A stretch of DNA of 64,000 bases from Squalus acanthias (Eukaryota), in the NCBI GenBank assembly GCA_030390025.1, contig CM059432.1, forward strand, positions 5,022,001 to 5,086,000, read 5' to 3'. Under the pieces are notes generated by a model. That model had not been told where the DNA came from. It saw nothing but the letters and a program-made list of their open reading frames with translations, and searched no databases. Positions 1 to 63,545 of this stretch are shown here, in pieces (position 1 is the first letter of the stretch; every line of letters begins with the position of its first letter). Made by a program: the position numbers and the translations under genes.

Positions 1-192
1 CTTCCCTAAAAGGAAGTTAGTGAACCAGTTGGGTTTTAACGACAATCCAGTGGTTTCATGGTCACTTTTAGTGCCACCAGCTTTCTACTTCCAGATTATT
101 ACTGTATGTTTTTAATAAAACTGATTTCAAATTGCCAGGGTGGGATTTGAATTCGCATTCCCTGGATTACTAGTCCAGTAACATAACCACTG
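1..192 (-). mobile_element. tRNA-like head fragment of the tRNA-headed LINE/SINE family
   Basis: Similar to 18560..18760 (gtggttatgttactggactagtaatccag...ttcaaatcccacc on minus). Confidence 0.75.
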
Positions 193-307
193 TAGTAATG
201 CAATATTTTACTTACGCACCAAGTAAATCTCAAAGTGGAAACAAATATGCATAATGCTATTCTTGGTTAAGTTGATTTGTTAACAGCAGTTTTGGAATCG
301 ACTTTAC

Positions 308-397
308 CTTGTGGCCTTGTGTCGCAGATCAATGATAATATCCACTTCAATCTGACAGCAGTTGAAAAGAACGAGTGTAACGGGGACTAAACACAAA
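308..397 (-). CDS. TRAPPC8: TRAPPC8 exon (LCLVPVTLVLFNCCQIEVDIIIDLRHKAT)
   Basis: ccacag| acceptor, AG|gtaaag donor, 90 nt, phase 2 to 2. Confidence 0.94.
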
Positions 398-1182
398 CTG
401 TGGAACAGACAAAAAGGACATCAAAAAATGTTACAGATCCTTCATGTGCTCAAACATATCTATATTTAACAAACCTTTAACTCAATATGCTACAAGTAAG
501 AATTGTGTTTATATCGGATTCAGTAATGATGTTTAGAAACAGACAAAGTCTTGCATTAATTCAACTTTGGCAGAAAGACCATGAATTAAACTAGTCAAAA
601 ATACTTTTCCCCTCCCCCCAATTCTCTGAATGCAGGTGATCATAGAATTTTGCATTAGTCACTCAATGCAGCAGTGACACATGCAATCGAGTGTATAAAG
701 AACATTAAAAAAAATCCCTCGAGGTACTCTCGGCACAGACACGATGGTCCAAATGGCCTCCTTCTGTGCTGTATCATTCTATGATATCCAACTTTTGAAT
801 AACCCCAATATTTGTTAGCTCCATTAACTTGCTTTTTAGCTGAAGTTAAGTCCTGTTGCCTCACGAATCCTTTTGCTGTAATTTGACTTCCTGGGTTTCG
901 CTCATAATTTATATTCTATCGACTACAATGTGTTTCCCCCTTTATCCAGCTTATTACTAGACAGTAAAGTATGTTAATCTGAATTTAAAGCAGTATTTTG
1001 AGCGGAACAGCAAGTGCCAATCATGCTGTTCAAGACTTTTCGTATAATGGAATATAATACAACTAATAATTGGAGAAAAGTAGTTCAGAGGCTCCGTGCA
1101 CAAGAGGAATTAAAAGATCACATCGTTCCACCAAAAATCTCAAACAAAAATGCCCTTAAGATTTAGTTAAAGCTATACAAGA

Positions 1183-2990
1183 ACAATTTGTATTTATAGG
1201 GCGCCTTTACTGTAGAGAAACTTCTCAAAGTGTTTCACTGAATCGTAATCAGACAAAAATCTGCTCCTTTGGCTCAGCATTGATATCAGGAAGGCTGACT
1301 GACAGCTTGGTCAGAGACACAGGTTTTAAGGAGGGTCTTAAAAGAGGAGAGGCAGAGAGTTTTAGGAAACAAATTCCGAGATGTCTGAAGGCACAGCCGC
1401 CAATTGGGGGTGTGAGCGAAGGGAGCGGGAGAAGGACAGGAGGCCAGATTTGGAGGAACGCAGAGCTCTCAGGGTTATAGAGCTTGAGGAGGTTAGAGAC
1501 AGGGAGGGGCGAGGGCACGAAGGGATTTAAACATGATTGGAGAGTTGGGGCATGGAAGCCAATAAGCACAAGGGTGAGAACAGGATGAAGGGCCGCAGAT
1601 ATTTGAATAAAGTAACAGCGTGGAGAGAGAGAGAGAGGCCGGCTAAGAGAGTATTGCAATAGTAGAGTCTGGAGATGACAAAGACAGGGATGAGAGTTTC
1701 AGCAGCAGATGGGATGAGGCGGGGATATTATGGAGGATGAAGTAGGCGGGGTTTGTGATGGGAGAGGATATGGGATCAGAAGCTCAGTTCAGCGTCAAAT
1801 AGGACGCCGAGATTGCAAACAGTCTGGTTCAACCAGAGACAGTTGCCGGGGAAAGGGATGGAAGCGGTAGTGAGGGTAGGGAGTTTGTGGCGGGGGCTGA
1901 AAACAGTTTTTTGGTCTTCTGAATGTTTACTGGTGGAAAGTACAGCATTCCCAGGACTGGCTGTTGGACAAGCAGTCTGACAGCACCAAAGCAGTGGAGG
2001 GGTTGAGAGCGCTGGTGAAGAGATAGAGCTGCTGTCTACGGTCTACTTGGCCCTGTCTTTGCTAATGAGGTCAAGAGTCAGCACGTAGATGAGGAAAAGG
2101 TGGTGGCCAAGGACAGATCGTTGGGGGACTCGGGAGGCAATAGTGTGGGGGTAGGAAAAGAAGCCATTGCTGGAACTGATTTGGCTACACATGAATAGGC
2201 AAGAGTGGAACCCAGCGAGGGCAGTCCCACTGAGCTGGACAAGGGAGGAGAGACATTGGAGGAGGATGGTGTAGTCCACCATAAGAAGCTTCAATGGTCA
2301 AGAAGGACAAGGAGGGATAGTACACCATGGTCACAGTCACACAGGATGTCACTGGTGACTTTTATCAGGACCATTTCAGTGCTGTGGCAGGGGTGGAAAC
2401 CTAATTGGAAAGATTCAAATGGGAAAGATGAGCACAGATTTGTGAGGTGACTACACGTTCAAGGACTTTGAAGAAGAGGAAAGGGAGGCTGGAGATGGGA
2501 CGGTAGTTGGCAAGGAAAGAGGTGGAGGGCAAGATTTTTGAAGGTAGGGGCGAGGTGTTGAGGGATATTTTGAAAGGGAGGGGAACCATTTGCAATGCCA
2601 GCTAGCATGTGAGCCAGGAGGGAAAGTTGGGTGGTCAGCAGTTTAGCAGGAATGGGGTTGAGAGAGTAGGGGGTGGGTTTCATGGACAAGATGAGCTCAG
2701 AGATCAAGAGGGTAGATAGGAGAGAAATTAGAGAAAGATGTGGGCAAGTGGGAACCTATGAGGAGGCTTGGCAGGAAGGGCGGGGGTGATTGTGGCAGAG
2801 GCAGCTGAACAGATGGTATCAACATTAGTGACAAGGAATAAGCCCATGAGTTCTTGGTAACATGTTCTTGGCGGTGTGGGTGGAGGGGACAGGGGTTTAA
2901 GCAAACGATTGGTAGTGGGGAAAAGAAGCCAGAAGTTATCTTTGCCCCCCCAGGATGATCCTGGTATAGTGGATGGTTTTGGCAGATGGG
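1183..2990 (-). mobile_element. Degenerate L2-clade LINE, 3' part
   Basis: RT fragments NYRPISSLPF..KVLERVV and VPQRSVLG..LFLIY; L2-type 3' tail near 1183. Confidence 0.8.
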
Positions 2991-3013
2991 GAATAAAGCC
3001 CAATAGTGCTTCA

Positions 3014-3570
3014 CTATTCCAACGCACTCCTGGTAGGCCTCCACGTTCTACCCTCCGTAAACTTGAGGTCATCCAAAACTCTGCTGCCCGTGTCCTAACT
3101 CACACCAAGTCTCGTTCACCCATCACCCCTGTGCTCGCTGACCTACATTGGCTCTCGGTTAAACAACGTCTCAATTTTAAAATTCTCATCCTTGTTTTCA
3201 AATCCCTCCATGGCCTCACCCCTCCCTATCTCTAATCTCCTCCATATACACAACACCCCACCCCCGAGATCTCTGCACTCCTCTAATTCTAACCTCTTGA
3301 GCAACCCCGATTTTAAATCGCTCCACCATTGGTGGCCGTGCCTTCAGCTGCCTAGGCTCGAAGCTCTGGAATTCCCTCCCTAAACACTTCTATCTCTCTT
3401 TCCTCCTTTAAGACGCTTCTTAAAACGAACCTCTTTGACCAAGCTTTTGGTCATCTGCCCTAATATCTCCATGTGGCTCGGTGTTGAATTTTGTTTGATA
3501 ATCACTCCTGTGAAGTGCCTTGGGACATTTTACTACGTTAAAGGCGCTATATAAATACAAGTTGTTGTTA
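3014..3570 (+). mobile_element. L2-clade LINE 3' end
   Basis: KLEVIQNSAARVLT...PITPVLADLHWL; tail ttaaaggcgctatataaatacaagttgttgtt. Confidence 0.88.
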
Positions 3571-4639: not shown

Positions 4640-5619
4640 TAGATGGAAGTGCTAGAAATGGAGTTCATGGATGCTGGGAAGGTACCAGTAGATTGGAAAC
4701 AGGTGTTCATCGACAAAAAGGGGAACAGATAAAGCCAACTACATACAACTTGTATTTATATAGCGCCTGTAACATAGTAAAATGTCCCAAGGCACTATCA
4801 GGAATAGACTTGATTTATCTAGACAATAACAAGCTTGGGAGCAGTCAACATTGATTCAGAAGGGAAAGATTCTGCCTCGACTTTTTTGAGGAAGTGACAA
4901 TCTAAGCGGACTCTGGGAAGCCCTATGACGTTGTGGACCAGGACTTCGAGAAGGTTTCTGTTAAACTAATAGCATTTTTGTGGGGAACTTTGTAAACTCC
5001 AAGCTGTAGGGATTCAGGGTAAACACTTTAAACGAAGGGAGAAAACAAGTGCGCTTTGGAGAAGGTATGTCAGAGCAGCGGGGAGGAGGGACACAGAAAG
5101 TGGGGTAACTCCAGCCATCAGTATTGGACCACGACTGTTTCTAATTTAAATCGCTGCTGTGGATGCAGAACCTGAATGCAAAGTAGTCAAATTTACAGAC
5201 TATACCCAACTAGAAAGGGCGGTGGAATTGGAAGTGGCAGCTCCGAAATGATCCTTTTGACTACCCAATCGAGCTGAATGAATCAAGTGTCACAACAATG
5301 GCAAATGAAATTTAAAGCAGACAGATGTAAAGTACTGCACATGGGAACGGAAAATAGGCAACATACGAACTCCATGACGATGAAGCTATTGAATTACATC
5401 GAGCCAACAGCAGATAAACAGGCCATTCGGTCCAACTGGTCCGTGCTGGTGTTTATGCTCCACACGAGCCTCCTCCCACCCCTCTGCATCTCACCCCATC
5501 AGCATAACCTTCTATTCCTTTCTCCCTCATGTGTTTATCTACATAGTCAAAACAGTTGAATATAGTCACAGGAAGTCACGATAAAACTTTATAATGCTCT
5601 GGCCAGAGTACTATGTCCA
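4640..5619 (+). mobile_element. Old degenerate CR1 RT remnant (continues about 8742..9030)
   Basis: WQMKFKADRCKVLHMG; interrupted by a younger LINE and a CR1 tail at about 5405..5540. Confidence 0.65.
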
Positions 5620-8600
5620 GTAATGGTAACCATGAAACTATCGGATTCTCGTAAAAACCCACCTGGTTCACTAATGTCCTTTAGGGAAGGAAATCTGCCG
5701 TCCTTACCCGGTCTGGCCTATATGTGACTCCAGAACCACAGCAATGTGGTTGACTCTTAACTGCCCTCTGAAATGGCCTAGCAAGCCACTCAGTTGTAAC
5801 TAACCACTACGAAACAAAATAATAAGAATGAAACTGGACAGACCACCCGGCATCGACCTCGGCACTGGCTGCGGACACGGCAACGGCACACCCAGCCCAG
5901 TCAACCCTGCAAAGTCCTCCTCACCAACATCTGGGGACTTGCGCCAAAATTGGGAGAGCTGTCCCACAGACTAGTCAAGCAACAGCCTGACAGTCATACT
6001 CACAGAATCATACCTTTCAGCCAATGTCCCAAACTCCTCCATCACCATCCCAGGGTATATCCTGTCCCACCAGCAGGAGTGGTGGCACAGTGGTATACAG
6101 TCGGGAAGGAGTGGCCCTGGGAGTCCTCAACATTGACTACGGACCCCATGAAGTCTCATGGCTTCAGGTCAAGCTTGGGCAAGGAAACCTCCTGCTGATT
6201 ACCACCTACCGCCCTCCCTCAGCTGATGAATCAGTACTCCTCCATGTTGAACACCACTTGGAAGAAGCACTGAGGGTAGTAAGGGCACAGAATGTACTCG
6301 GTGGGGGACTTCAATGTCCATCACCAAGAGTGGCTCAGGAGCACCACTACTGACTGAGCTGGCCGAGTCCTGAAGGACATAGCTGCCAGTCTGGGCCTGC
6401 GACAGGTGGTGAGCGAACCAACACGAGGGAAAAACCTACTTGACCTCGTCCTCACCAATCTATCTGTCGCAGATGCATCTGTCCATGACAGCAGTGACCA
6501 CCGCACAGTCAAGGTGGAGACCAAGTCCCGTCTTCACACTGAGGACACCCTCCATCGTGTTGTGTGGCACTACCACCGTGCTAAATGGGATAGATTCAGA
6601 ACAGATCTAGCAGCTCAAAACTGGGCATCCATGAGGTGCTGTGGGCCATCAGCAGCAGAAGAATTGTATTCCACCACAATCTGTAACCTCATGGCCCGGC
6701 ATATCCCTCATTCTACCATTACCACCAAGCCAGGGGACCAACCCTGGTTCAACAAGGAGTGTAGAAGAGCATGCCAGGAGCAGCACCAGGCATACCTAAA
6801 AATGAGGTGCCAACCTGGGGAAGCTGCAACACAGGACTACATGCATGCTAAAAAGCGGAAGCAGCATGCTATAGACAGGGCTAAGCGATCCCACAATCAA
6901 CAGGTCAGATCAAAGCTCTGCAGTCCTGCCACATCCAGTCGTGAATTGTGGTGGACCATTAAACAACTAATGGGAGGAGGAGGCTCCATGAATATCCCCA
7001 TCCTCAATGATGGTGGAGCCCAGCACATGAGTACAGAAGACAAGGCTGAAGCGTTTGCAACCAACTTCAGCCAGAAGTGCTGAGTGGATGATCCATATCG
7101 GCCTACTCCCGAGGTCCCCACCATCACAGAAGCCAGTCTTCAGCCAATTCGATTCACTCCACGTGATATCAAGAAACGGCTGAGCGCACTGGATACAGCA
7201 GAGGCTATGGGCCCCGACAACATCCCGGCTATCGTGAAGACTTGTGCTCCAGAACTAGCCGCGCCTCTAGCCAAGCTGTTCCATTACAGCTACAACACTG
7301 GCATCTATCCGACAATGTGGAAAACTGCCCAGGTATGTCCTGTCCACAAAAATCAGGACAAATACAATCTGGCCAATTACCGTCCCATCAGTCTACTCTC
7401 AATCATCAGCAAAGTGATGGAAGGCATCATCGAAAGTGCTATCAAGCAGCACTTACTCACCATTAACCTGCTCACGGATGCCCAGTTTGGGTTCCGCCAA
7501 GACCACTCGGCTCCCGACCTCATTACAGCCTTGGCCCAAACATGGACAAAGGAGCTGAATTCCAGAGGTGAGGTGAGAGTGACTGCCCTTGACATCAAGG
7601 CAGCATTTGACCAAGTGTGGCATCAAGGAGCCCCAGTAAAACTGAAGTCAATGTGAATAGGGGGGAAAATGCTCCACTGGCTGGAGTCATACCGAGCACA
7701 AAGGAAGATGGTTGTGGTGGTTGGAGGTCAATCATCCCAGCCCCAGGACATCGCTGCAGGAGTTTCTCAGGGCAGTGCCCCAGGCCCAACCATCTTCAGC
7801 TGCTTCATCAATGACCTTCCCTCCAACATAAGGTCAGAAATGGGGATGTTCGCTGATGACTGCAGAGTGTTCAGTGCCATTCACAACTCCTCAGATAATG
7901 AAGCAGTCCATGCCCGCATGCAACAAGACCTGGACGACGTTCAGGCTTGGGCTGATAAGTGGCAGGTAACATTCACGCCAGGCAATGACTATCTCCAACA
8001 AGCGAGAGTCTAACCACCTCCCCATGACATTCAATGGTATTACCATCGCCGAATCCCCCACCATCAACATCCTGGGGGTCACCATTAACCAGAAATTAAC
8101 TAAACTAGCCACAAATACTGTGGCAACAAGAGCAGGTCAGAGGCTGGGTATTCTGCGGCGAGTGTCTCACCTCCTGACTCCCCAGAGCCTTTCCAACATC
8201 TACAAGGCACAAGTAAGGAGTGTGATGGAATACTCTCCACTTGCCTGGATAAGTGCAGCTCCAACAACACTCAAGAAGCTCGACACCATCCAGGACAAAG
8301 CAGCCCGCTTGATTGGCACCCCATCCGCCACCTTAAACATTCCCTCCCTCCACCACCGGCGTACCATGGCTGCAGTGCGTACCATCTACAAGATGCACTG
8401 CAGCAACTCGCCAAGGCTTCTTCGGCAGCACCTCCCAAACCCGCGACCTCTTCCACCTAGAAGGACAAGGGCAGCAGGCTCTTGGGAACACCATCACCTC
8501 CAAGTTCCCCTCCAAGTCACACACCATCCAGAGTTAGTAGTATATCGCCGATCCTTCATCGTCGCTGGGTCAAAATCCTGGAACTCCCTCCCTAACAGCA

Positions 8601-8740
8601 CTGTGGGAGCACTTTCACCACACGGACTGCAGCGGTTCAAGAAGGAGGCTCACCACCACCTTCTCAAGGGCAATTAGGGATGGGCAATAAATGCTGGCCT
8701 TGCCAGCGACACCCACATCCCATAAACAAATTAAAAAAAA
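5620..8740 (+). mobile_element. Near full-length single-ORF LINE (APE endonuclease + RT; CR1/L2 group, Zenon/Crack-like), disrupted
   Basis: YRPPS, GDFN-like, LDL.LT, SDH; RT NYRPISLL, QFGFR, LDIKAAFD, FADD, YKAQVRSVMEY; frameshifts and stops; AATAAA + A-rich tail. Confidence 0.92.
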
Positions 8741-9241
8741 ATATAAGTGAATGGCTAAAATAATCTTGGAATGTTACTTTAAATTGAGAGTACAAGAGGA
8801 CACAGATTCAAACTAGTAAAAGGTAAATTCAAGACTATCAGGAGATTCTTCTTCATACAAAAAAACATCAATATATGGAACAGACTTCCAGATAGAGTAG
8901 TGGAGCTGAAAAGCCTGGAAACATTTAAAGAAACAACTGGATGCTACAGTGTGGGAACGTGAAGATATTTCTAGATGAATTTCTGGATGGATAAATTAAG
9001 ATGGCCTGAATGGTCGTCTTCATTCTTAATAATCTTGCTATCTCTGGAATCCATAGCCCCAGGAAAATACCAGCAGTGTTCATATTTGGATTTTGAGAAG
9101 AGCATTTTCAAAAAGCAATGGGAAGACTGCAAGGCAAATAAAACCATTAATGGAGCGAAGTTAAGTTGATTTAGATTATAAAAAAAGTCACAAAAACACA
9201 ATGGCACTGGGCACAGTTGGCAACAGTTAGAAATGAGGTAC

Positions 9242-9705: not shown

Positions 9706-10144
9706 AGTTTGCATTTCTATCGCGCCAGACGTTCCAAAGCGCTTTACAGCCAATGAAGTACTTTTGAAGTGTAGTCACTGTTGTAATGTAGGAAACGTGG
9801 CAGCCAATTTGTGCACAGCAAGGTCCCACAAACAGCAATGTGATAATGACCAGATAATCTGTCTTAGTTACGTTGATTGAGGGATAATTATTGGCCAGGA
9901 CACCGGGAAGAACTCACCTGCTCTTCTTCAAAATAGTGCCGTGGGATTTTTATGTCCACCTGAGGGGGCAGACGGGGCCTCGGTTTAATGTCTCATCTGA
10001 AAGATGGTACCTCCAACAGTGCAGCACTCCCTCAGCACTGCACTGGGAGTGTCAGCCTAGATTTTTGTGCTCAAGTCTCTGGAGCGGTACTACAACCTTC
10101 TGATGCAGAGGTGAGGGTGCTACTCACTGACCCACAGCCGACTG
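9706..10144 (-). mobile_element. tRNA-derived Deu-domain SINE (SacSINE1-like)
   Basis: tRNA-like head, central domain shared with 46086..46575, L2-like tail. Confidence 0.82.
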
Positions 10145-14926: not shown

Positions 14927-17900
14927 CTTTTTTTTTTAAAGATTCATTCCTGGGATGTGGGAGTCACTGGCAAGGCCAGCATTTATTGCCCATCCCTAAC
15001 TGCCCTTGAGAAGGTGGTGGTGAGCCGCCTTCTTGAACCACTGCAATCAGTGTGGTGAAGGTACTCCCACAGTGCTGTTAGGAAGGGAGTTCCAGGATTT
15101 TGACCCAGCAACGATGAAGGAACGGCAATATATTTCCAAGTCAGGATGGTGTGTGACTTGGAGGGGAACTTGGAGGTGATTGTGTTCCAAGGCGCCTGCT
15201 GCCCATGTCCTTCTAAGTGGGAGAGGTCACGGTTTTGGGTGGCGCTGTCGAAGAAGCCTTGGCGAGTTGCTGCAGTGCATCTTGTAGATGGTACACACTG
15301 CAGCCACGGTGCGCCGGTGGTGGAGGGAGTGAATGTTTAAGGTGGTGGATGGGGTGCCAATCAAGCGAGCTGCTTTGTCCTGGATGATGTCGAGCTTCTT
15401 AAGTGTTGTTGGAGCTGCACTCATCCAGGCAAGTGGAGAGTATTCCATCACACTCCTAATTTGTGCCTTGTAGATGGTGGAAAGGCTTTAGGGAATCAGG
15501 AGTCACCACTGAATACCAGCCTGACCTGCTCATGTAGCCACATGTGGCTGGTCCAATTAAGTTTCTGGTCAATGGTGACCCCCAGGATGTTGATGGTGGG
15601 GGATTCGGCAATGGTAATGCCTTTGAATGTCAAGGGGCGTTGGTTAGACTCCTCTTGTTGCAGATAGTCATTGCCTGGCACTTGTGTGGCACCAATGTTA
15701 CTTGCCACTCATCAGCACAAGCCTGAATGTTGTCCAGATCTTGCTGCATGCGGACATGGACGGCTTCATTATCTGGGGAGTTGCGAATGGAACTGAACAC
15801 TGTGCAGTCATCAGCGAACATTCTCACTTCTGACCTCATGATGGAGGTGGTCATTGATGAAGCAGCTGAAGATGGTTGGGCCCAGGACCTCCCTGAGGAA
15901 CTCCTGGGGTGGAGATGATTGACCTCCAACAACCACGACCATCTTGCTTTGTGCTAGGTATGACTCCAGCCAGTGGAGAGTTTTCCCCAATTCTCACTGA
16001 CTTCAATTTTACTAGGGCTCCTTGATGCCACACTCGGTCAAATGCTGCCTTGATGTCAAGGGCAGTCACTCTCACCCCACCTCTGGAATTCAGCTCCTTT
16101 GTCCATGTTTGGACCAAAGCTGTAATGAGGTCTGGAGCCGTGTGGTCCTGGCGGAACCTGAACTGAGCATCGGTGAGCAGGTTATTGGTGAGTAAGTGCC
16201 GCTTGATAGCACTGTCGATGACACCTTCCATCACTTTGCTGATAATTGAGAGTAGACTGATGGGGCGGTAATTGGCCGGATTGGATTTGTCCTGCTTTTT
16301 GTGGACAGGACATACCTGGGCAGTTTTCCACATTGTCGGGTAGATGCCAGTGTTGTAGCTGTACTGGAATAGCTTGGCTAGAGGCACGGCTAGTTCTGGA
16401 GCGCAAGTCTTCAGCACGACAGCTGGGATGTTGTTGGGTCCATACCCTTTGCTGTATCCAGTGTGCTCAGCCGTTTCTTGATATCACGTGAAGTGAATCG
16501 AATTGGCTGAAGACTGGCTTCTGTAATGGTGGGGACGTCAGGAGGAGGCCGATATGGATCATCCACTCGGCACTTCTGGCTGAAGATGGTTGCAAACGCT
16601 TCAGCCTTGTCTTTTGCACTCGTGTGCTGGGCTCCGCCATCATTGAGGATGGGGATATTCATGGAGCCTCCTCCTCCCCCCGTTAGTTGTCTAAATGTCC
16701 ATCACCATCCACAGCAGGACTGCAGAGCTTTGATCTGATCCGTTGATTGCGGGATCGTTTAGTTCTGTCTATAGCATGCTGCTTTTGCTTTTTAGTATAC
16801 ATGTAGTCCTGTGTTGCAGCTTCCCCAGGTTGGCACCTCATTTTTAGGTAAGCCTGGTGCTGCTCCTGGCATGCTCGTCTGCACTCCTCATTGAACCAGG
16901 GTTGGTCCCCTGGCTTGATGGTAATGGTAGAGTGTGAGGGATATGCCGGGCCATGAGGTTACAGATTGTGGTGGAGTATAATTCTGTTGCTTCTGATGGC
17001 CCACAGCGCCTCATGGATGTCCAGTTTTGAGCTGCTAGATCTGTTCTATCCCATTTAGCACGGTGGTAACAGAAGAACATAAGAAATAGGAGCAGGAATA
17101 GGCCACTTGGCCCCTTGAGCTTGCTCCGCCATTCAATAAGATCATGGCTGAACTTGGGCTCAAAGCCACTTCCCTGCCCGCTCCCCATAACCCTTCACTC
17201 CCTTATCTTGCAAAAATCTGTATCTCCACCTTAAATGTATTTAATGATCCAGCCTCCACGGCTCTCTGCGGCAGAGAATTCCACAGATTTATGACCCTCT
17301 GAGGGAAAAAGTTCCTCCTCATCTCAGTTCTAAAAGGGCGACCCTTTATTCTGAAACTATGCCTCGGAGTTCTAGATTTCCCCACAAGGGGAAACATCCT
17401 CTCTGCATCTACTTTGTCGAGCCCCCTCAGTATCTTATATGTTTCAATAAGATCACCTCTCATTCTTCTAAATTCCAATGAGTATAGGCCCAACCTGTTC
17501 AACCTTTCTTCATAAGTCAACCCCCTCATCTCAGGAATCAACCGAGTGAATCGTCTCTGAACTGCCTCCAATGGAAGTATATCCTTCCTTAAATAAGGAG
17601 ACCAAAACTGTATGCAGTACTCAAGGTGTGGTCTCACCAATACCCTGTACAGTTGTAGCAGGACTTCCCTGCTTTTATACTCCAACCCCCTTGCAATAAA
17701 GGTCAACATTCCATTTGCCTTTTTGATTGCTTGGTGGTAGTGCCACACAACACGATGGAGGGGGCCCTCAGTGTGAAGATGGGTCTTCGCTTCACAAGGA
17801 CTGTGCGGTGGTCACTGCTACCAATGCTGTCATGGACAGATGTATCTGCGACAGGTAGATTGGCGAGGACAAGGTCAAGTAAGTTTTTCCCCTTGTGTTG

Positions 17901-18775
17901 GGGTTCTCTCCAGCTGCCGCAGGCCCAGTCTGGCAGCTACATCCGTTCGGACTCGGCCAGTCGTGGTGCTACCAAGCCACTCTTGGTGATGGATATTGAA
18001 GTCCCCCACCCAGAGTACATACTGTGCCTTTGTGCTTCTTCCAAGGGGTGTTCAACATAAAGGAGTACCGATTCATCAGCTGAGGGAGGGCGGTAGGTGG
18101 TAATCAGCAGGAGGTATCCTTACCCAGGAGCCTGAAGCCATGAGATTTCATGGGGTCTGGAGTCAATGTTGAGGACTCCCAGGGCCACTCCCTCCCGTAT
18201 ACCAATGTGCCGCCGCCTCTGGTGGGTCTGTCCTGCTGGTCTGTCAGGATGGTGATCGAGTAGTCTGGGACATTGGCTGAAAGGTATGATTCTGTGAGTA
18301 TTCTGTGAGGCTGTTGCGTGACAGATCTCCCAATTTTGACAGTCCCTAGATGTTAGCGAGGAGGACTTTGCAGGGTCGAAGTCGTGTCCAAAGTCGGTGC
18401 CGAGGACGATGGTTTTATTCTTATTATTGTTTTCTGTAGCAGTTTGTTACAACTGATTGGCTTGCTAGGCCATTTCAGAAAGGCAGTTAAGAGTCAACCA
18501 CATTGCTGTGGGTCTGGAGTCACATATAGGCCAGACCGGGTAAGGACTGCGGATTTCCTCCCCTAAAGGGCAGATGTTTTTTTTTTTTTTTTTTTTAACG
18601 ACAATCCAATAGTTTCGTGGTCACCATTACGGATACTAGCTTTTTATTCCAGATTTAATTAATTGAATTTAAATTCCCCAACTGCCGTGGTGGGATTTGA
18701 ACTCATGTCTCTGGATCATTAGTCCAGGCCTCTGGATTACTAGTCCAGTAACATAACCACTATGCCACCATACCC
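14927..18775 (-). mobile_element. Full-length copy of the single-ORF LINE with tRNA-like 5' head (contains CR1 insertion)
   Basis: Collinear with 5620..8740; box A TGGCATAGTGG 18757..18767, box B-like AGTTCAAATCC 18693..18703; poly-A tail near 14927. Confidence 0.9.
17069..17732 (-). mobile_element. 5'-truncated CR1 nested in the LINE, 7-bp TSD GGTGGTA
   Basis: ORF 17203..17748 [22 protein letters not shown] at 17062..17068 and 17733..17739. Confidence 0.9.
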
Positions 18776-19397
18776 ATATGACAGGCATTTCAACAGAAAA
18801 GAGGGAAAGGTAGACTGAGGGAGTCCCAAGTAAGAAAAAGAGAAAGTGACTTAGAGCGATAGAAAAAAAACCCTCAAAGAGTGGAAGGTGAACAGAAAGG
18901 TCATGAGAGGGCCACGAAGAATCAGAGTGGAAGATGAGCAGGGTCATAGTTACATGGGGAGAGAATCTTTTTGGTCCATATCTAACGTCAGAGATTAATA
19001 CTTATTATTCATAAAAATATGAAAATACTGAGTAGATTACAAGGCAGCAATCTTAATTGGGGGCTTTGATAATAAACTGCTTGAGCTTTACTCTAGTTGT
19101 CATTGATGGCTTTATATAACAGCAGAGATTACTGCTTCATAACTGCTGCTGTGTTGCCATTATTCTTTTCGTAAATAGATAAAAATTGCTTACATTCAGC
19201 TTTGCGATAGTACATAGAGCAGCCTCTCCGATCTGTGTGATCATTGGAGAGGCTTTGATTTACATATTACAGCATTATTCATTCAATTCTGAAAATACCT
19301 GCCCTCACATCAGTCTCACTGGCATTAAGGGGCAGGTCTACAGGGAACCTTGGAGATCAGAATTCAAGATCAGTCCAGATCCCAGTATGAAGACACG

Positions 19398-32068: not shown

Positions 32069-33385
32069 TGACAGCCACATAAGGAGAAATTAGGGCAGGT
32101 AACCAAAAGCTTGGTCAAAGGGGCAGGTTTTAAGGGGCGTCTTATAGGAGGAAAGAGGGGTAGCGAGGCAGAGGTTCAGGGAGGGAATTCCAGAGCTTAG
32201 GGCCTAGGCAACAGAAGGCACAGCCACCAATGGTTGCGCGATTATAATCAGGGATCCTCAAGAGGGCAGAATTAGAGGAGCGCAGATATCTGAGGGGGGG
32301 GGGGGGGGGTTCTGGGGCTGAAGGAGATTACAGAGATAGGAGGGGCGAGGCCATGGAGGGATTTGAAAACAAGGATGAGAATTTTGAAATCGAGGCGTTG
32401 CTTAACCGGGAGCCAACAAGCTTCTTCTTCTTCTTCGGCAGTCCCTCGGAACCGAGATGACTTGCTTCCACATTAAAAATGAGTTCTCAGGTGGCTGATG
32501 AGTCCAATGCGGGACCTACAGTCTCTGTCACAGGTGGGGCAGACGGTGGTTGAAGGGGCGGGTGGGTGGGGTGCTTGAGTTGACGTGCGCTTCTTCCGCT
32601 GTTTACGCTTGGCTTCCGCTTGCTCCCAGCGAAGAGACGATAAGTATTCGGCGCCTTCCCGGATGCTTCTCCTCCACTTTGTACAGTCTTGGGCCAGGGA
32701 TTCCCAGGTGTTGGTGGGGATGTTCCACTTTTTCCAAGGCGGCTTTGAGGGTGTCCTTGAAGCGTTTCCTCTGCCCACCTGGGGCTCTCTTGCCATGTCG
32801 GAGCTCCGAGAAGAGCACTTGTTTTGGGAGTCTCGTATTGGGCATGCGGACGATGTGACCCGTCCATCGGAACTGATCGAGCGTGGTGAAAGCGTCGATG
32901 CTGGCCTGAGCAAGAACACGGACGTTGGTGCGCCTATCCTGCCAATGGATTTGCAGGATCTTGCAGAGGCAGCATTGGTGGTACCTCTCCAGTACTTTGA
33001 GGTGCCTGCTGGACATGGTCCATGTCTCTGAGGCATACAGGAGCCAATGTAGGTCAGCAAGCACAGGGGTGATGGGCGAACGGGACTTGGTGCGAGTTAG
33101 GACACGGGCAGCCAAGTTTTGGATCACCTCAAGTTTACGTAGGGTAGAATTTGGGAGGCAAGCCAGGTGTGTTGGAATAGTCAAGTCTAGAGGTAACAAA
33201 GGCATGGATGAGGGTTTCAGCAGCGGATGAGCTGAGGCAAGGGCGGAGACGGGCGATGATAGAGGTGGAAATAGGCGTTCTTAGTTATGCTGTGGATGTG
33301 TGGTCGGAAGCTCATTTCAGGGTCAAATATGACACCAAGGTTGCGAACAGTGTGGTTCAGCCTCACAGATGTTAGGGAGAGGGAT
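32069..33385 (-). mobile_element. L2 fragment interrupted by RTE
   Basis: KLEVIQNLAARVLTRTKSRSPITPVLADLHWL. Confidence 0.85.
32417..33039 (-). mobile_element. RTE-clade (BovB-like) LINE 3' end, 8-bp TSD GGAGCCAA
   Basis: YASETWT, RWTGHIVRM, GGQRKRFKDTLK, CPTC..SRIGLISHLRTH; (GAA)n tail; TSD 32409..32416 / 33040..33047. Confidence 0.88.
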
Positions 33386-34379
33386 TAGTAGTGGTTTAAT
33401 GGATGCTTTTCATATTAGAGGGATGTAAACAGTAGTGTCTCCAAGGAATCAGTGTTAGGACCATTTATTGCTTTATATCCATGTCTAAACTCGTGTATAT
33501 TATTTCTATCTGCATGTATGTGCAATATAAATGATCTGGACTCGAGTACAAGGGGCATAATAGCAATTTGCAGGGAACAAAAATAGGGGCTAAGGTTAAC
33601 TGTGAAGACTGTAAATGACTTCATAAAGACATGGGCAGTTTGTAGGTCAGGCAGATTGATGTCAATTAAAATTTGAACTTGAAGATTGAGACCATCCATT
33701 CAGCGGCCTCCCGCTTTCCGTTCCGCCCAAGCCAAGACCCCCCCCCCCCCGCCCTGATCACACATCCTTCTCTAGTTTCTCTATCTCCTCTCATGGCCTC
33801 TGAGGGCATCTTGCCCACAAGACCCACTTCCCGTCTTGATCCCATTCCCAATAAACCACTGACCACTCAACTTCCCTTCCTGGCCCTCATCCTTGCTGAC
33901 ACTACAAATGGTTCTCTCCCTTCAAGTACCATCACCCTCCCTTCCAAAAAAAATCCATCATTTTTCACCTACTCAAAAAGCCCATTGTTGACACCCGCCC
34001 CACCCCCCATGTCCTTGCAAACTACCACCCAACCTCCCAAAGCGTTGCATTTCATAACAGACAATCATCACCTTGTTCAACACAAAAATCAGAGTTAATT
34101 CTTTGCAAAGTATAAATTACTCTCAATTTAAATTGGTTTTCTTAAAACAAGGCTTTATGAAATAGGCGCAGAGATCTTTTAACAACTTGTATTTATACAG
34201 CGCCTTTAACGTAGTAAAACGTCACAAGGTGTTTCACAGGAGTGTTATCAAACAAAATTTGACAACGAGCCACATAGATATTAGGACAGATGAGGTAGGA
34301 TGGATTTAAGCATCATCTTAAAGGAGGAGAGCGAGGTAGAGCGGCGGAGAGGTTCAGGAAGGGAATTCCAGAGCTTCGG

Positions 34380-37802: not shown

Positions 37803-37928
37803 TAGACTCATACAATTTTACACTCACTGCGCATATAAAAACATTAATTTTTAACTACCATTTCAAACTGATTCATAAACAAGTGACATTACAGGCCAAA
37901 TCAAACCAGATATAAAAACACCACCTAC

Positions 37929-38371
37929 CTCAATTTTGAATGTGGTTTTGTACTCTCATAATAAAATAAAAAGTTTATCTCATGAACTCCTTCTTCGTCT
38001 GGTCCACGCAGCCACATGGGTAGCTGCACCGAAGCCCCAGGTAATAATACAGAGTCAGGGAGCGGTACATCAATCACCCAAAGCGGGTTTCCAGAGCCCA
38101 TGCCAAAGTCTGCAGGGGAAACCGACGATGTCACAGCTGAAGACGCGCACATGCTGTCGTTCACAACAGTCTTGTAGGCGCTGCAGTTTTCAGAAGCCGT
38201 GGGACTCAACGGCGTCAACACCGCAGTTTTACTCCCAAAGGAAAAGAAGTCCGGATCTTTGCACACAACTCTCAATCCAGTAAGCGGGCACTGGCTCACG
38301 TTCACAAACTCCACATACGTCTTTCTAATTTCCCCACAAAGTAGTCCAGTGGGAAAGTTAATGAAAAATAC
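37929..38371 (-). CDS. TRAPPC8: TRAPPC8 exon (VFFINFPTGLLCGEIRK...LPMWLRGPDEEGVHEINFLFYYE...KL)
   Basis: tgtgcag| acceptor, AG|gtaggt donor, 443 nt, phase 0 to 2; ORF 37925..38377. Confidence 0.97.
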
Positions 38372-46914: not shown

Positions 46915-47405
46915 AGTGTGCCGGTGGTGGAGGGAGTGAATGTTTAAGGTGGTGGATGGGGTGCCAATCAAGCGGGCTGCGTTGTCCTGGATGGTGTCGA
47001 GCTTCTTGAGTGTTGTTGGAGCTGCACTTATCCAGGCAAGTGGAGAGTATTCCATCACACTCCTGACTTGTGCCTTGTAGATGGTGGAAAGGCTTTGGGG
47101 ACTCAGGAGGTGAGACACTCACTGCAGAATACCTAGCCTCTGACCTGTTCTTGTTGCCACAGTATTTATGTGGCTGGTCCAGTTAAGTTTCTGATCAATG
47201 GTGACCCCCCCCCAGGATGTTGATGGTGGGGGATTCGGCGATGGTAATGCAGTCGAATGTCAAGGGGCGGTGGTTAGACTCTCGCTTGTTGGGGATAAGC
47301 TGTTCAGTTGGCGAAGGAGAAAAGGCGAGGAGTGCACGGGGTTGGTGGTTAGACTTTCTCTTGTTGGAGATGGTCATTGCCTGGCACTTGTGTGGCACGA
47401 ATGTT
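46915..47405 (-). mobile_element. Internal fragment of the single-ORF LINE
   Basis: IYKAQVRSVMEYSPLAW. Confidence 0.85.
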
Positions 47406-49216: not shown

Positions 49217-52200
49217 GTGGTACAGGGAGCCAGTCAAGTGGGGGGAGCAAAAAGAAATGTGGTAGTGGTAGGGGACAGAATAGTTAGGGGGATAGACACT
49301 GTTCTCTGCAGCGTGAGTCCCGAAGGCTGTGTTGCCTGCCCTGCTGCCAGGGTAAAGGGCATCTCCTCCTGGCTGGAGAGGAACTTAGAGTGGGAGGGGA
49401 AGATCCAATTGTCGTGGTCCATGTAGGTACCAACGACATAGGTAGGACAAAGAAAGAGGTTCTGCTGAGCGAGTATGAGCAGCTAGGGGCTAAATTAAAA
49501 AGCAGAACCACAAAGGTAATCATCTCTGGATTACTACCTGAGCCACGTGCAAATTGGCATAAGGTAAATAAGATCAGAGAGATGAACAAGTGGCTCAAAC
49601 ATTGTTGTAGGAGAAATGGGTTTCAATTCTTGGGGCACTGGCACCAGTACTGGGGTAAGAGGGAGCTGTTCTGTCGAGATGGGCTTCATTTGAACCAGGC
49701 TGGGACCAGTGTCCTGGCGAATCGAGTAACTAGGGCTGTAGATAGGGCTTTCAACTAAATAGTGGAGGGTGGGGTGGGGGGGGGGGGGATGGATCCGCCG
49801 AGCAGAAATTTAAAATAAGTCAAATAAAAATGAAGGCAAAAGTGCAGGGTAGCGAAAGGGGTAATGATAACCAGAGTGTGACAGGAAGGGACAGAGCGTA
49901 TACACAAAAGAGTGCATCAGAAAGAGGGGTCAGAGTAGGGAAAAATGGTAAAAAGACATTAAAAGCTCTATATCTGAATGCACGCAGCATTCGTAACAAG
50001 ATAGATGAGTTGACAACACAAGTAGAAATAAATGGGTATGATCTGATAACCATTACAGAGACGTGGTTGCAAGGTGACCAAAGCTGGGAACTGAATATTC
50101 AGGGGTATTTGCCATTTCGTAAGGATAGGCAGAAAGGAAAAGGAGGTGGTGCAGCTCTGTTAATAAGGGATGAGATCAGCACAGTAGTGAGAAATGATAT
50201 TAGCTTAGAAGATCAAGACGTAGAATCAGTTAGGGTGGAGATAATAAATAATAAGGGTAAGTCGTCACTGCTGGGAGTGGTCTACAGGCCCCCAAACAGT
50301 AGCCACACTGTAGGACAGAGTATAAATCAAGAAATAATAGAGGCTTGTAAGAAAGGTACGGCTATAATCATGGGAGATTTTAATCTTCATATTGATTGGA
50401 CAAAGCAAATTGGCAAAGGTAGACTTGAGGAAGAGTTCTTAGAATGTATACATGATGGTTTCTTGGAACAATACGTTGTGGAACCAACCAGGGAGCAGAC
50501 TATTTTAGATCTGATAATGTGTAACGAGGCTGGATTAATTAATGATCTCGAAGTGAAGGATCCTCTTGGGAAGAGTGATCATAGCATGGTAGAATTTCAA
50601 ATTCAGTTTGAGGGCGAGAAAGCTAGGTCTCAAACTAGTGTCCTGAACTTAAATAAAGGGACAAAGGTATGAAGGCAGACTTGGTTAAAGTGGACTGGGA
50701 AAATATATTACAGGGTAGGGAAATTATTGGACAAAATTCTGAGGGACAGAATTAGTCTCCACTTGGAGAGGCAGGGATTAATCAGGGATAGTCAGCATGG
50801 CTTTGTCAGGGGGGAGATCATGTCTGACCAATTTGATTGAATTTTGAGAGGGGGTGACTAGGTGTGTGGATGAGGGTAGTGCAGTTGATGTAGTCTACAT
50901 GGACTTCAGTAAGGCTTTTGTCGAAGTCCCACATGGGAGACTGGTCAAGAAGGTAAGAGCCCATGGGATCCAGGGCAATTTGGCACATTGAATCCAAAAT
51001 TGGTTTAGTGGCAGGAGGCAGAGGGTGATGGTCGAAGGTTGTTTTTGTGACTGGAAGCCTGTGTCCAGTGGTGTACCGCAGGGATCGGTGCTGGGTCCTT
51101 TGCTGTTTGTAGTGTACATTAATGATTCAGATATGAATGTAGGAGGTATGATCAGTAAGTTCGCAGATGACACGAAAATTGGTGGAGTGGTAAATAGCGA
51201 GGAGGGAAGCCTCAGGCTACAGGACGATATAGACGGGATGGTTAGATGGGCAGAACAGTGGCAAATGGAATTTAACCCTGAAAAGTGTGAGGTGATGCAT
51301 TTTGGGAGGACTAACAAGGCAAGGGAATACACAATGAATGGTAGGACCCTAGGAAGGACCTTGGTGTGCATGTACATAGATCTCTGAAGGCAGGACAGGT
51401 AGATAAGGTGGTTAAAAAAGGCATATGGGATATTTATATTCTATGCCTCGGCTAATGAAGGCAAGAGCAGGGAGGTTATGATGGAGCTGTACAAAACGCT
51501 AGTTAGGCCACAGCTGGAATACTGTGTGCAGTTCTGGTCACCACACTCTAGGAAGGATGTGATTGCATTGGAGAGGGTGCAGAGGAGATTCACCAGGATG
51601 TTACCTGGGCTGCAGCGCTTCAGCTATGAAGAGAGACTGGACAGGCTGGGGGTGTTTTCCTTAGAGCAGAGAAGGCTGAGGGGGGACCTGATTGAAGTGT
51701 ACAAAATTATGAGGGGCATAGATAGGGTAGATAGAAAGGAACTTTTCCCCTTAGTAGAGGGGTCAATAACCAGGGGGCACAGTTTCAAGGTAAGGAGCAG
51801 GAGGTTTAGAGGGGATTTGAGGAAAAGCTTTTTCACCCAGAGGGTGGTTGGAATCTGGAACTCACTGCCTGAAAGGGTGGTAGAGGCAGGAACCCTCACA
51901 ACATTCAAGAAGCATTTAGATGAGCACTTGAAACGCCATAGCATACAAGGCTACGGACCAAGTGCTGGAAAATGGGATTAGAATAGACAGGGCTTGATGG
52001 CCGGCGCGGACACGATGGGCCTCTTTCTGTGCTGTATAACTCTATGACTCTATGACATTTGGAAAATCATAATATAGTCAAGCAGAGTCAGCATGGTTTT
52101 ATGAAAGAGAAATCATGTTTGACAAATTTGCTGGAGTTCTTTGAGGATGTAACGAGCAGGGTGGATAAAGAGGAACCAGTAGATGTCGTGTATTTGGATT

Positions 52201-56042: not shown

Positions 56043-57415
56043 CTTTTTTTTTTATTCATTCCTGGGATGTGGGCATCGCTGGCAAGGCCAGCATTTATTG
56101 CCCATCCCTAGTTGCCCTTGAGAAGGTGGTGGTGAGCCGCCTTCTTGAACCGCTGCAGTCCCGTGTGGTGAAGGTGCTCCCACGGTGCTGTTAGGGAGGG
56201 AATTCCAGGATTTTGACCCAGCGACGATGAAGGAACGGCCGATATACTTCTAAGTCAGGATGGTGTGTGACTTGGAGAGGAACTTGGAGGTGGTGGTGTT
56301 CCCATATGGCTGCTGCCCTTGTCCTTCTAGGTGGAAGAGGTCGCGGGTTTGGGAGGTGCTGCCGAAGAAGCCTTGGCGAGTTGCTGCAGTGCATCTTGTA
56401 GATGGTGCACACTGCAGCCACGGCGCGCCGGTGGTGGAGGGAGTGAATGTTTAAGGTGGTGGATGGGGTGCCAATCAAGCGGGCTGCTTTGTCCTGGATG
56501 GTGTCGAGCTTCTTGAGTGTTGTTGCAGCTGCACTCATCCAGGCAAGTGGAGAGTATTCATCACACTCCTTACTTGTGCCTTGTAGATGGTGGAAAGGCT
56601 TTGGGGAGTCAAAGAGGTGAGACGCTCGCTGCAGAATACCTAGCCTCTGACCTGCTCTTGTTGCAACAGTATTTATGTGGCTGGTCCAGTTAAGTTTCTG
56701 GTCCATGGTGACCCCCAGGATGTTGATGGTGGGGGATCGGCGATGGTAATGCCGTTGAATGTCATGGGGAGGTGGTTAGACTCTCGCTTGTTGGAGACAG
56801 TCATTGCCTGGCAGTTCTGTGGCGCGAATGTTACCTGCCACTTATCAGCCCAAGCCTGAACGTCATCCAGGTCTTGTTGCATGCCGGCATGGACTGCTTC
56901 ATTATCTGAGGAGTTGTGAATGGCACTGAACACTGTGCAGTCATCAGCGAACATCCCCATTTCTGACCTTATGTTGGAGGGAAGGTCATTGATGAAACAG
57001 CTGAAGATGGTTGGGCCTAGGACACTGCCCTGAGGAACTCCTGGGGCTGTGATGATTGACCTTCAACCACCACAACCATCTTCCTGTGTGCTAGGTATGA
57101 CTCCAGCCAGTGGAGCGTTTGCCCCGATTCCCATTGACTTCAGTTTTACTGGGGCTCCTTGATGCCATACTCGGTCAAATGCTGCCTTGATGTCAAGGGC
57201 AGTCACTCTCACCTCACCTCGGGAATTCAGCTCCTTTGTCCATGTTTGGACGAAGGCTGTAATGAGGTCGGGAGCGGAGTGGTCTTGGCGGAACCCAAAC
57301 TGGGCATCAGTGAGCAGGTTATTGGTGAGTAAGTGTAGCTTGATAGCACTGTCGATGACACCTTCCATCACTTTGCTGCTGATTGAGAGTAGTAATTGGC
57401 CGGGTTGGATTTGTT
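56043..57415 (-). mobile_element. 5'-truncated copy of the single-ORF LINE
   Basis: QFGFR, LDIKAAFDRVWH, FADD; poly-A tail near 56045. Confidence 0.9.
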
Positions 57416-57814
57416 CTTATGAATGCATAACAATTTATTTGACCTAAAGCAGCCCCCACAACTATTAGATGCCGTACAAAGGTTTGGCTTCCATTTGTAG
57501 CTATAGTTGTAACAAGTCATCGTCTCTCTGACTAAAGAGTTGATTACTCTGTTGTAACTCATCTGTGCTTATTTATACTTTTTCTTCCATCACATGTATG
57601 GAGGAGTGGATATTAACTGCTTCCTGGGAGCGGCACGAGTCTAGACTTTCCGTTCCTTGATCAATAAACCAAGAGGAAAAATGTCATTAACAAAAACCTA
57701 GAGCAGGTGGGGAGGTGGTGTTCTGGGAAACAACAGTGTTGGAAGAATACAACCATGGCCATGACCAGGAGGAACCCCAATGATTTGTTTACAGTTGAAC
57801 TGGTTTGATCTCCG

Positions 57815-58187: not shown

Positions 58188-58688
58188 CGAATGGAATACC
58201 AAGTCAACAGGCCCAGTTCATCTTTGATCCAGGTAATGTTTGAGCTCCTTTAGGCTCAAAGATAGAAGATATTAAATGATGGGAAAAGGCAGATCTTTAA
58301 TACCATGTCAAAATAAACAGTAGGGGCAGTGGATTGCGAAAAGCAAATTAAAGATGGTCAGTAAGTTCTTCACAGAATGTACAAAATGGACTTCCACATA
58401 GGGTAGCAGACCCTCGTCAGTTTGAGCTGCAGCCAAGCCAGACGGTGAAGTGCCCCAGGGGTGAAAGGAATGTGTTGCAACGCACCACACCAGACACTTC
58501 AATATGTAAACCGTCAGGTAAATTATGTAAAGCGTATAAGCAGATTTAAAAACCCGAGAGAAATAGCCGATGAGAATTAGCAGACGATGAAAGCAGAAAT
58601 TTGCTAAGCTAATCCAATAGTTACAGAACCTCCTGTGCATATCAGTACTGAGCATAAAGCTGCAATTATTCCAGAAATGCTTCATTAC

Positions 58689-58849
58689 CTTTGGATGTGC
58701 ATCTTTCTCATTGCTGATCGACTCTCTTGTATCTCCCTCTGAACCTTTATTAAAGTTTCTAAAATTAAATTTCCACAACAACGATAGATCGTTCAACAGT
58801 AGAGGGACCTTCAAAGGATTTTTGAACATGACTTCGACCGTGACTGGTT
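58689..58849 (-). CDS. TRAPPC8: TRAPPC8 exon (EPVTVEVMFKNPLKVPLLLNDLSLLWKF...AHPK)
   Basis: tgtgtag| acceptor, AAG|gtaatg donor, 161 nt, phase 1 to 0. Confidence 0.93.
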
Positions 58850-62610: not shown

Positions 62611-63184
62611 ACACAAAGTTACAGTAAATATTAACCAAACAAGCTGATTAAATGCATGCGTAAATGTATGCAGGTCACTGTATGTGCTGAACTATATTTG
62701 CAAGAACGTGCTTCACACGAGACTTGATTTTAATGCATCTTACTCAGATGTGGATTTCGAGACAAAATACGCGTTACAGAATCAGCCTTACTGCAGATCT
62801 TTTCCCAAAAAGAGAGGGGCCAAGAGTTATCCCAAAGAACTGCACAAGACAGTCCAATGCAGCTGTAGTAAAATCATTGAGCGCGCACAACTGGCCAAGG
62901 AAGTAGATAATATTTCAACACCACCCGCTCTCCTGCTGCACCTTGTTCTGCGACTTATTAGGAATTAACATTGAAAATAAAAGATGAGATTTTGGGAGAA
63001 ATATGCAGAAGACAGTACTGATGCTTCTGTAATCTAAGAATCTGTATTTCGTATCAACTAACACTTAGTCAAACAAAAATGATAAACCAGCCACACGAGT
63101 TGATTTTCAGCCCCAAGTTGAAAACCAGAACATGAGCCTCAGCTCTCCATGAAAATGAGGGTTAAATTTAAAACGCCCATTACC

Positions 63185-63545
63185 ATCATGGTTATCTTAC
63201 TGGACTAGTGATCCAGAACCCTGGGCTATTAATACAGAGAACTCCCACCATGGTAGTTTGAGAATTTGCATTCAGTTCAGTTTAAAAATAAAAAGCTGGT
63301 CATCAGTAAAAGTGATCACAAAGCTGTCGGATTGTCGTCGTGGGTTCACTGATGTCCTTTAAGGAAGGAAACCTGCCATCCTTACCCAGTCCAGCCTATA
63401 TGTGCCTCCAGTTGCACTCCAGCTCTTCACTGCCCTCAGAAGTGGCCGAACAAGCCACTCTGATATAAAATCAGGGCAACGAGGGATGGGCAATAAATAC
63501 CAACCTTGCCTGCGCCACTCACACCCCAGGAACGAATTAAAAAAG
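63185..63545 (+). mobile_element. SINE made of the 5' head and 3' tail of the single-ORF LINE
   Basis: ggttatcttactggactag...ggttcactgatgtcctttaaggaaggaaa...aagccactc joined to gggcaacgagggatgggcaataaat...aaaaaa. Confidence 0.75.

Follow-up and report, generated by a model that had tools for sequence, protein, structure and literature searches.

Background

LINEs are regarded as transcripts of Pol II (or of Pol I by co-transcription), and SINEs as non-coding Pol III RNAs. Some LINEs contain tRNA-like sequence: RTE-1_DAn and related elements (Kojima 2018, PMC5786205), which are likened to the present element by description alone, belong to the RTE clade, unlike Zenon, and the accessible part of that article makes no claim about Pol III or terminators for RTE-1_DAn. 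Zenon LINEs are defined by the absence of ORF1 and the presence of a poly(A) tail (PMC13343379, accessible text). Pol III termination has been assayed on strong and weak signals: as far as the accessible part of PMC3141230 goes, these comprise T4, TVT3, T2VT2 and T3VT; TTCTT is a 15% terminator and isolated T3 is inactive.

Here we describe a single-ORF Zenon LINE of Squalus acanthias with a tRNA-derived head which, judged from its sequence, is on balance likely to be transcribed end to end by Pol III. The observed basis for this reading is the head itself, a sharp boundary at the tRNA start, a body free of terminators, the absence of an in-frame ATG and a conserved leader.

Zenon in the dogfish genome

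The window, the whole 64-kb stretch of DNA analysed here, contains the following Zenon sequences and parts, where "majority" refers to positions in the family majority sequence:

5618..8741, plus strand: decayed Zenon LINE copy with stops and frameshifts (majority 150-3315, 95.5% identical to the majority)
5911..8677, plus strand: its broken single ORF, APE endonuclease (EN) and reverse transcriptase (RT), no ORF1; Pfam RVT_1 is found in the window
8686..8740, plus strand: its 3' tail, AATAAA, about 45 nt, a short T run and poly(A)
17733..18777, minus strand: older full-length Zenon copy, 5' part with tRNA head (majority 1-1134, 82%)
18683..18775, minus strand: tRNA-like head of the older copy (tRNA-Thr by ARAGORN; Rfam tRNA at 18 bits, below the gathering score)
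18765-18755 (approximately) and 18704-18692, minus strand: A box and B box motifs in this head
17069..17732, minus strand: CR1 3' fragment, a later insertion into the older copy
14928..17068, minus strand: 3' part of the older copy whose head ends at 18777 (majority 1128-3315, 91%)
46920..47405, minus strand: internal Zenon fragment
56044..57417, minus strand: 5'-truncated Zenon copy (majority 1915-3315, 94.9%)
63181..63544, plus strand: short non-coding element, head and leader joined directly to the Zenon tail (majority 11-331 and 3241-3312)

The stretches 14928-17068 and 17733-18777 are one Zenon copy split by the later CR1 fragment, which does carry T4 runs on the Zenon sense strand, and the four stretches noted originally represent three copies of one repeat. 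The focal copy had been taken to be tRNA-headed. It is headless: it begins at majority position 150, its head lost through 5' truncation, and the head of the window sits on the copy ending at 18777. Two host exons were also seen on the minus strand of the window (37925-38370 and about 58500-58800), with peptides that presumably resemble TRAPPC8; some or all of the window repeats may lie within introns of the host gene to which these exons belong.

A search of the 3.7-Gb genome with the 5' part of Zenon returned 7304 candidates, 40 of which were scored. Thirty-nine copies were retrieved, and a majority sequence was built from 30 near-full-length ones (the window copy and 29 genomic copies that gave a single long match), whose identity to it is 94-97%. 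This sequence measures 3315 nt (T=0.195) and has one long frame of 914 amino acids encoding EN and RT, with no ORF1; in copy L048 Pfam recognizes the domains Exo_endo_phos_2 and RVT_1. At the 3' end AATAAA is followed after about 45 nt by poly(A). Both marks of Zenon, a single APE endonuclease and RT ORF without ORF1 and a poly(A) tail, are thus present. By eye, the first 400 nt of SquAca_Zenon-1 in the PMC13343379 supplement are nearly letter-for-letter the same as the majority, and the published length is 3314 nt against 3315 nt. This sequence match identifies the element as the elasmobranch Zenon LINE of the CR1 group that has already been published (Stuart et al. 2026, PMC13343379).

An RT tree, in which the relatives are unnamed, placed shark CR1 far from shark Zenon. 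In twenty of the 30 copies (among L031-L069) the same two nucleotides are missing where the endonuclease begins, near majority position 520, i.e., they form a frameshifted, non-autonomous subfamily spread in trans. No target-site duplications were reliably found at the Zenon copies examined. Four annotated shark or ray proteins (P0005, P0047, P0057 and P0066) contain pieces 55-79% identical to the Zenon ORF; these pieces are probably gene-model artefacts or exonised copies.

The tRNA-like head

The 39 copies were picked by sequence downstream of the head, not by the head itself. Fifteen of them begin at majority positions 1-6 in unrelated flanks, the remainder begin at scattered truncation points, and no common sequence was found upstream of the majority start in any of the 39. 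Since the 5' ends are sharp at tRNA +1 in copies picked downstream, the head belongs to the element. The A box begins about 8 nt after the first G of the majority, a spacing that is found in tRNA genes. The element thereby shows the 5' end of a type 2 promoter, about 8 nt before the A box, and the tRNA-derived head with A and B boxes of a SINE2.

The published elasmobranch Zenon consensuses (white shark, stingray, whale shark, catshark and dogfish), examined by eye over the part available, are all headed; the A box is present in 5/5 and the B box in 4/5, with variable sequence between the boxes. No head was seen in the first 400 nt of the coelacanth and two hagfish consensuses, all three of which have T4+ within that stretch, although the coelacanth 5' end looks poorly supported. 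In invertebrate relatives, where contig ends may hide the true 5' ends, no tRNA was found in 53/53 loci scanned, the A plus B box pattern was absent from 55/55 relatives with at least 400 nt upstream, and the head had no blastn match among 160 loci. Because Zenons elsewhere are without the head, these comparisons show, at the level of sequence, that it was acquired within the headed lineage.

In the main text of PMC13343379 the words "tRNA" and "polymerase III" do not occur (0 occurrences), and it describes neither the head nor the terminator deficit nor the absence of a start codon. The searchable literature, with Repbase and Dfam notes and subscription journals outside its scope, yielded no article describing a Zenon that is transcribed by Pol III or carries a tRNA head. 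The family is known and its anatomy is undescribed in the literature searched.

The 390-nt derivative and the 3' ends

Head and leader also occur in a SINE-like element of 390 nt, in which they are joined to the last 75 nt of the Zenon tail, mostly with the cut right before the GCT codon described below. This element has 6324 candidates in the genome, and the majority of the 20 copies aligned is without T4. Only this derivative is short and non-coding in the manner of a SINE2; Zenon itself is 3.3 kb long with a 914-aa frame. The same kind of leader-to-tail join was seen in contigs of other organisms. The 390-nt SINE was probably either the donor of the shared head and leader or a descendant of them, and the window element at 63181..63544 is either this SINE or an internally deleted form of Zenon. 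Another tRNA-headed SINE family, 420 nt long, lies at 9725-10142 of the window and in at least 10 other places; it has no match to the Zenon leader, and we take it to be the Deu-type SacSINE1.

In T+ retroposons a terminator (T4+ or TVT3) stands between AATAAA and the A tail. At 8728-8740 of the window and at 84 copy ends of the present family a run of 1-9 T directly precedes the A tail, downstream of AATAAA. A single T predominates (46 ends, against T4+ in 12, with 6 ends unscored), and T runs also expand after insertion at T/A borders in SINE linkers.

T runs on the sense strand

The original prediction was that the sense strand of this LINE has no run of four or more T, in the plus copy and the minus copies alike, whereas its antisense strand and the sense strands of neighbouring CR1 elements do. 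The counts bear this out. There are 0 T4+ runs on the plus strand of 5620-8740 (T=0.196) against 13 A4+ runs, 0 A4+ runs in 14950-17068, 17733-18775 and 56055-57415, and, for CR1, 10 T4+ in a majority built from 20 copies. The longest T4-free gap of the window (5255-9091, 3836 nt) coincides with the 5620 copy, and the three longest A4-free gaps (starting at 14899, 55621 and 17604) with the minus-strand Zenon copies. The consensus gives the same picture: the majority of 30 copies has 0 T4+ (7 TTT, 13 A4+, 11 C4+ and 9 G4+), and 21/30 copies lack T4 altogether. A total of 25 internal T4 events was counted over 226,769 aligned bases in 114 alignments, shared by at most two copies at any one position, i.e., they are private decay of single copies. 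A comparison of these 25 private gains with an expectation of 48.6 was discarded, the rates being inflated by CpG decay.

It had also been anticipated that a strand so poor in T would contain few such runs by chance, and this is so. The expected number of T4 runs is 3.9 under base shuffling (P=0.02), 1.8 under synonymous codon permutation (P=0.11) and 1.3 under dinucleotide shuffling (P=0.24), and the absence of T4 alone is weak, marginal evidence. Shorter and interrupted runs are more informative. TTT occurs 7 times in the majority against 20 expected, and 5 times in the ORF against 10.9 (P<0.01), and the synonymous use of T drops with the length of the run that it would make (132/318, 39/137, 5/39 and 0/2). 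Windows with four T in five nucleotides number 1 against 11.9 expected under base shuffling (0/1000 shuffles as low; P<0.001), 6.3 under dinucleotide shuffling (P=0.005) and, in the ORF, 5.5 under synonymous permutation (P=0.007-0.011); this statistic was picked after the TTT deficit had been seen, and its match to the terminator set in the accessible part of PMC3141230 was noticed afterwards. Codon-shuffled controls, the check proposed at the outset, therefore divide the claim: the T4 count is not significant, but the 4-of-5-T windows are significantly depleted.

The sole remaining window is TTCTT, so that the majority, examined as a Pol III unit, has no strong internal terminator and one weak one (0 T4, 0 TVT3, 0 T3VT and 1 T2CT2). 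Equivalent windows of A, C and G are not depleted, which makes the deficit T-specific, and terminator-like windows are low in all four parts of the sequence (0, 0, 0 and 1 against 2.6-3.3 expected). TT is depleted in general (odds 0.70). Avoidance of splice sites was considered as a cause of the deficit and is ruled against by the pyrimidine tracts, which are not depleted (8 against 5.5 expected). Contigs from four sequencing runs cover Zenon; among the differences listed, 0/8 changes to T create TTT or TTTT, with 305 further differences outside those listed. Among the sequencing runs listed, no RNA run carrying Zenon was found.

Control LINEs and relatives

Other LINEs of the same genome show no deficit of terminator-like windows: 31 against 25.9 expected in CR1 (majority of 20 copies), 6 against 5.4 in RTE (20 copies, 3' 2.1 kb only) and 23 against 18.7 in the L2 ORF (20 longest of 39, in a majority whose 5' part may include other sequence). 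The partial RTE majority (T=0.178) has only 1 T4 in 2091 nt. The A>T skew of the Zenon majority resembles that of CR1, so low T in itself is ordinary. The window holds a CR1 with an esterase (GDSL) ORF1 at 49288-50672 (plus strand; family majority about 4.4 kb) and, at 32473-33400 (minus strand), the 3' fragment of an RTE lying within that of an L2; both families served as controls.

From 160 related contigs, 86 with an open frame of at least 600 aa were retained, most of them distant and T-rich. The ratio of observed to expected terminator-like windows is at least 0.81 in 86/86 (median 0.99) and 0.18 in shark Zenon. The shark protein falls within a low-Phe clade (support 0.80). Only four of the relatives share a well-supported clade with it, L110, L191, L192 and L190, with 20, 28, 15 and 1 T4, respectively. 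L190, a close invertebrate relative, speaks against a simple account: it is T-poor (T=0.201) and low in Phe, has 1 T4 in its ORF against 3.9 expected (P=0.06) and has 8 terminator-like windows against 9.5, which is no depletion. It also has an in-frame ATG (L190:1-3099) and, after the stop codon, a T5 and a T6 in an apparent 3' UTR; its 5' end lies off the contig. The proposed comparison with relatives thus came out in favour of the claim for the terminator windows but not for T4 itself. Since L190 is T-poor yet undepleted for the terminator set, low T and low Phe are likely ancestral, older than the head, and the removal of weak terminators seems to be confined to the lineage with the head. 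The majority sequence nonetheless constitutes one evolutionary data point, the consensuses of other species being compared over the 400 nt available.

L190 is filed in a bacterial bin and is probably host contamination. More generally, many animal LINE contigs (L190-L269) are filed in bacterial metagenome-assembled genomes, where they represent host DNA contamination. No relative was found in viral contigs.

Leader and reading frame

Four features of the focal copy concern the start of the reading frame:

5645..5808, plus strand: conserved structured leader of about 165 nt, common to the 390-nt SINE-like derivative; candidate IRES
5768..5793, plus strand: hairpin with the 7-nt anticodon-like loop CU-AGC-AA (inner stem computed, outer pairs by eye)
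5806..5808, plus strand: site of GCT, the opening codon of the EN frame, which reads ACT here
5828..5830, plus strand: out-of-frame ATG opening a 48-codon overlapping frame

The majority lacks an in-frame ATG from the last stop up to the EN domain; the in-frame ATGs of the leader all precede a stop, and the next one lies beyond the endonuclease domain. Extended upstream to GCT, the EN frame encodes a basic, Arg-rich stretch. The frame-opening codon is GCT in 13/19 scorable copies and ACT in 6 (11/30 copies were unscored), and the ACT at 5806..5808 is consistent with CpG decay. The distance from GCT to EN is a multiple of three in 19/19 scorable copies and, by eye, in four of the published consensuses as far as these are available, the published dogfish sequence deviating by one. 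GCT is preceded by a spacer of 11 or 12 nt, and for this reason the frame apparently does not start upstream of GCT. The out-of-frame ATG is intact in 16 of the 30 copies, is replaced by ATA in 8 and was unscored in 6; it is present in 5/5 published elasmobranch consensuses over their available part.

The leader is nearly invariant, by eye, across the available part of these five consensuses. It folds into stems with some covariation: one pair that is A-U instead of U-A in 8-9 SINE copies and, by eye, a G-C versus A-U pair in the last hairpin (SINE versus stingray) and an A-U versus G-C pair in the inner stem in whale shark; the overall covariation term for the leader alignment is nil. The AGC of the loop is complementary to the frame-opening GCT (3-4 bp; a rough, post hoc chance of 1-2%). 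The PKI mimic of type 6 IRESs is arranged in this way, with an anticodon-like loop that can pair with the codon right before a non-AUG frame (PMC12221177, accessible part). An Rfam search of the leader returned no IRES family at E up to 10, and no counterparts of PKII/PKIII, SLIV or SLV and no L1.1 match were found. Identity of the leader with the Deu domain was considered and dropped, the Deu-like family of the window being unrelated to the leader. We likewise assume that the Zenon leader is not the Deu domain.

Proposed transcription and translation of Zenon

If Zenon is a Pol III gene, TFIIIC would bind the A and B boxes and Pol III would start at the first G, a step that we regard as probable. 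Master copies that gained a terminator would then have stopped being copied, and T runs would have been purged as a consequence of this start. As with Alu, Pol III would continue past the A tail until it meets a T run further downstream, and the A tail would serve the RT for priming. Transcription end to end would explain the lack of strong and weak T-run terminators on the sense strand. That the coding RNA is under selection to be readable by Pol III was the core of the original prediction; its chosen measure, the T4 count, fails under the strict nulls, but the T-specific deficit across the whole terminator set and the starts at tRNA +1 support it.

An uncapped Pol III RNA would require cap-independent translation, and for Zenon RNA we predict translation that begins at a non-AUG codon determined by the structured leader. 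The leader might recruit ribosomes, its anticodon-like loop pairing with GCU so that decoding starts at the next codon of the EN frame; this is the weakest step, offered tentatively, and IRES-like initiation is hypothesised with less certainty than Pol III transcription. Bolder, and rather doubtful, is the full scheme of a vertebrate autonomous retrotransposon that is a 3.3-kb coding Pol III gene with a tRNA-mimicking, IGR-like IRES acting on its uncapped RNA at a non-AUG start next to GCU, and whose 390-nt SINE keeps the promoter and leader, drops the start codon, docks on ribosomes and steals the RT.

The strongest alternative, which we nevertheless consider unlikely, is a SINE-capped LINE made by Pol II, the head being a passenger, a Pol II promoter or an RNA structure. 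Its T deficit would be inherited from a T-poor, Phe-poor clade, as the low-Phe relatives and the T-poor L190 might suggest; but L190 is undepleted for the terminator set, and the deficit persists with protein and codon usage fixed. Such an element is compatible with the absence of T4 under the strict nulls (P=0.11-0.24), and the general TT depletion could stem from other forces, whereas copies that begin at tRNA +1 with both boxes kept argue for Pol III. AATAAA near the 3' end fits Pol II, yet three AATAAA/ATTAAA hexamers lie within the first 140 nt. On a capped RNA, the out-of-frame ATG of the published consensuses could feed the ORF by frameshift or reinitiation, but it is ATA in 8/24 scored copies.

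Less probable still is a split life cycle, in which Pol III RNA is copied and its terminators are purged while other copies supply the protein through capped transcripts made by Pol II, so that an IRES would not be needed. This would account for the head and the T-run deficit without translating uncapped RNA, and the spread of 20/30 copies with one 2-nt frameshift implies that copying in trans is common; but the frame is kept under selection, which favours action in cis, and the missing in-frame ATG and the near-invariant leader beside the frame start are left unexplained. Chance combined with non-independence, i.e., one ancestral sequence that happened to be free of T runs, is very improbable: there is a single data point, a T4 expectation of only 1.3-3.9 and a partly post hoc statistic, but P is 0.005-0.011 under strict nulls, Zenon is an outlier among 86 relatives and three families of the same genome, and the deficit agrees with an independent feature, the promoter head.

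If Zenon is indeed transcribed by Pol III, it would blur the divide between LINEs and SINEs and would represent a natural long coding Pol III transcript with a built-in route to cap-independent translation. It would also provide an actual example of a SINE paired with a LINE, the body of the SINE being a leader of the LINE whose function can be tested, and expression cassettes in which Pol III makes coding RNA could be designed with its help.

Comparison with known systems

Zenon resembles the tRNA-derived SINEs (SINE2), including the T+ SINEs B2, Dip and Ves (PMC8466645, accessible part), in its A/B-box head, the lack of an internal terminator and its AATAAA-T-A tail. It differs from the T+ SINEs of that source in being 3.3 kb long and protein-coding, with a terminal T run that is mostly a single T. 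The tRNA-headed shark SINE SacSINE1, a DeuSINE, has L2-2 as its reported partner in the accessible part of PMC5499810. Lepidopteran Zenon and its internally deleted derivative Persaeus are likewise a Zenon with a short element made of its 5' and 3' parts; Persaeus, as described in the available text of PMC6740152, lacks both homology to tRNA and a Pol III promoter, unlike the shark 390-nt element. The type 6 (IGR) IRES of dicistroviruses (PMC12221177, accessible part) is similar in having a structured leader of about 150-190 nt with an anticodon-like loop before a non-AUG frame. In the Zenon leader, compared with that same description, the pairing is of only 3-4 pairs and PKII, PKIII, SLIV and L1.1 were not identified, and the element that carries it is a cellular retrotransposon rather than a virus.
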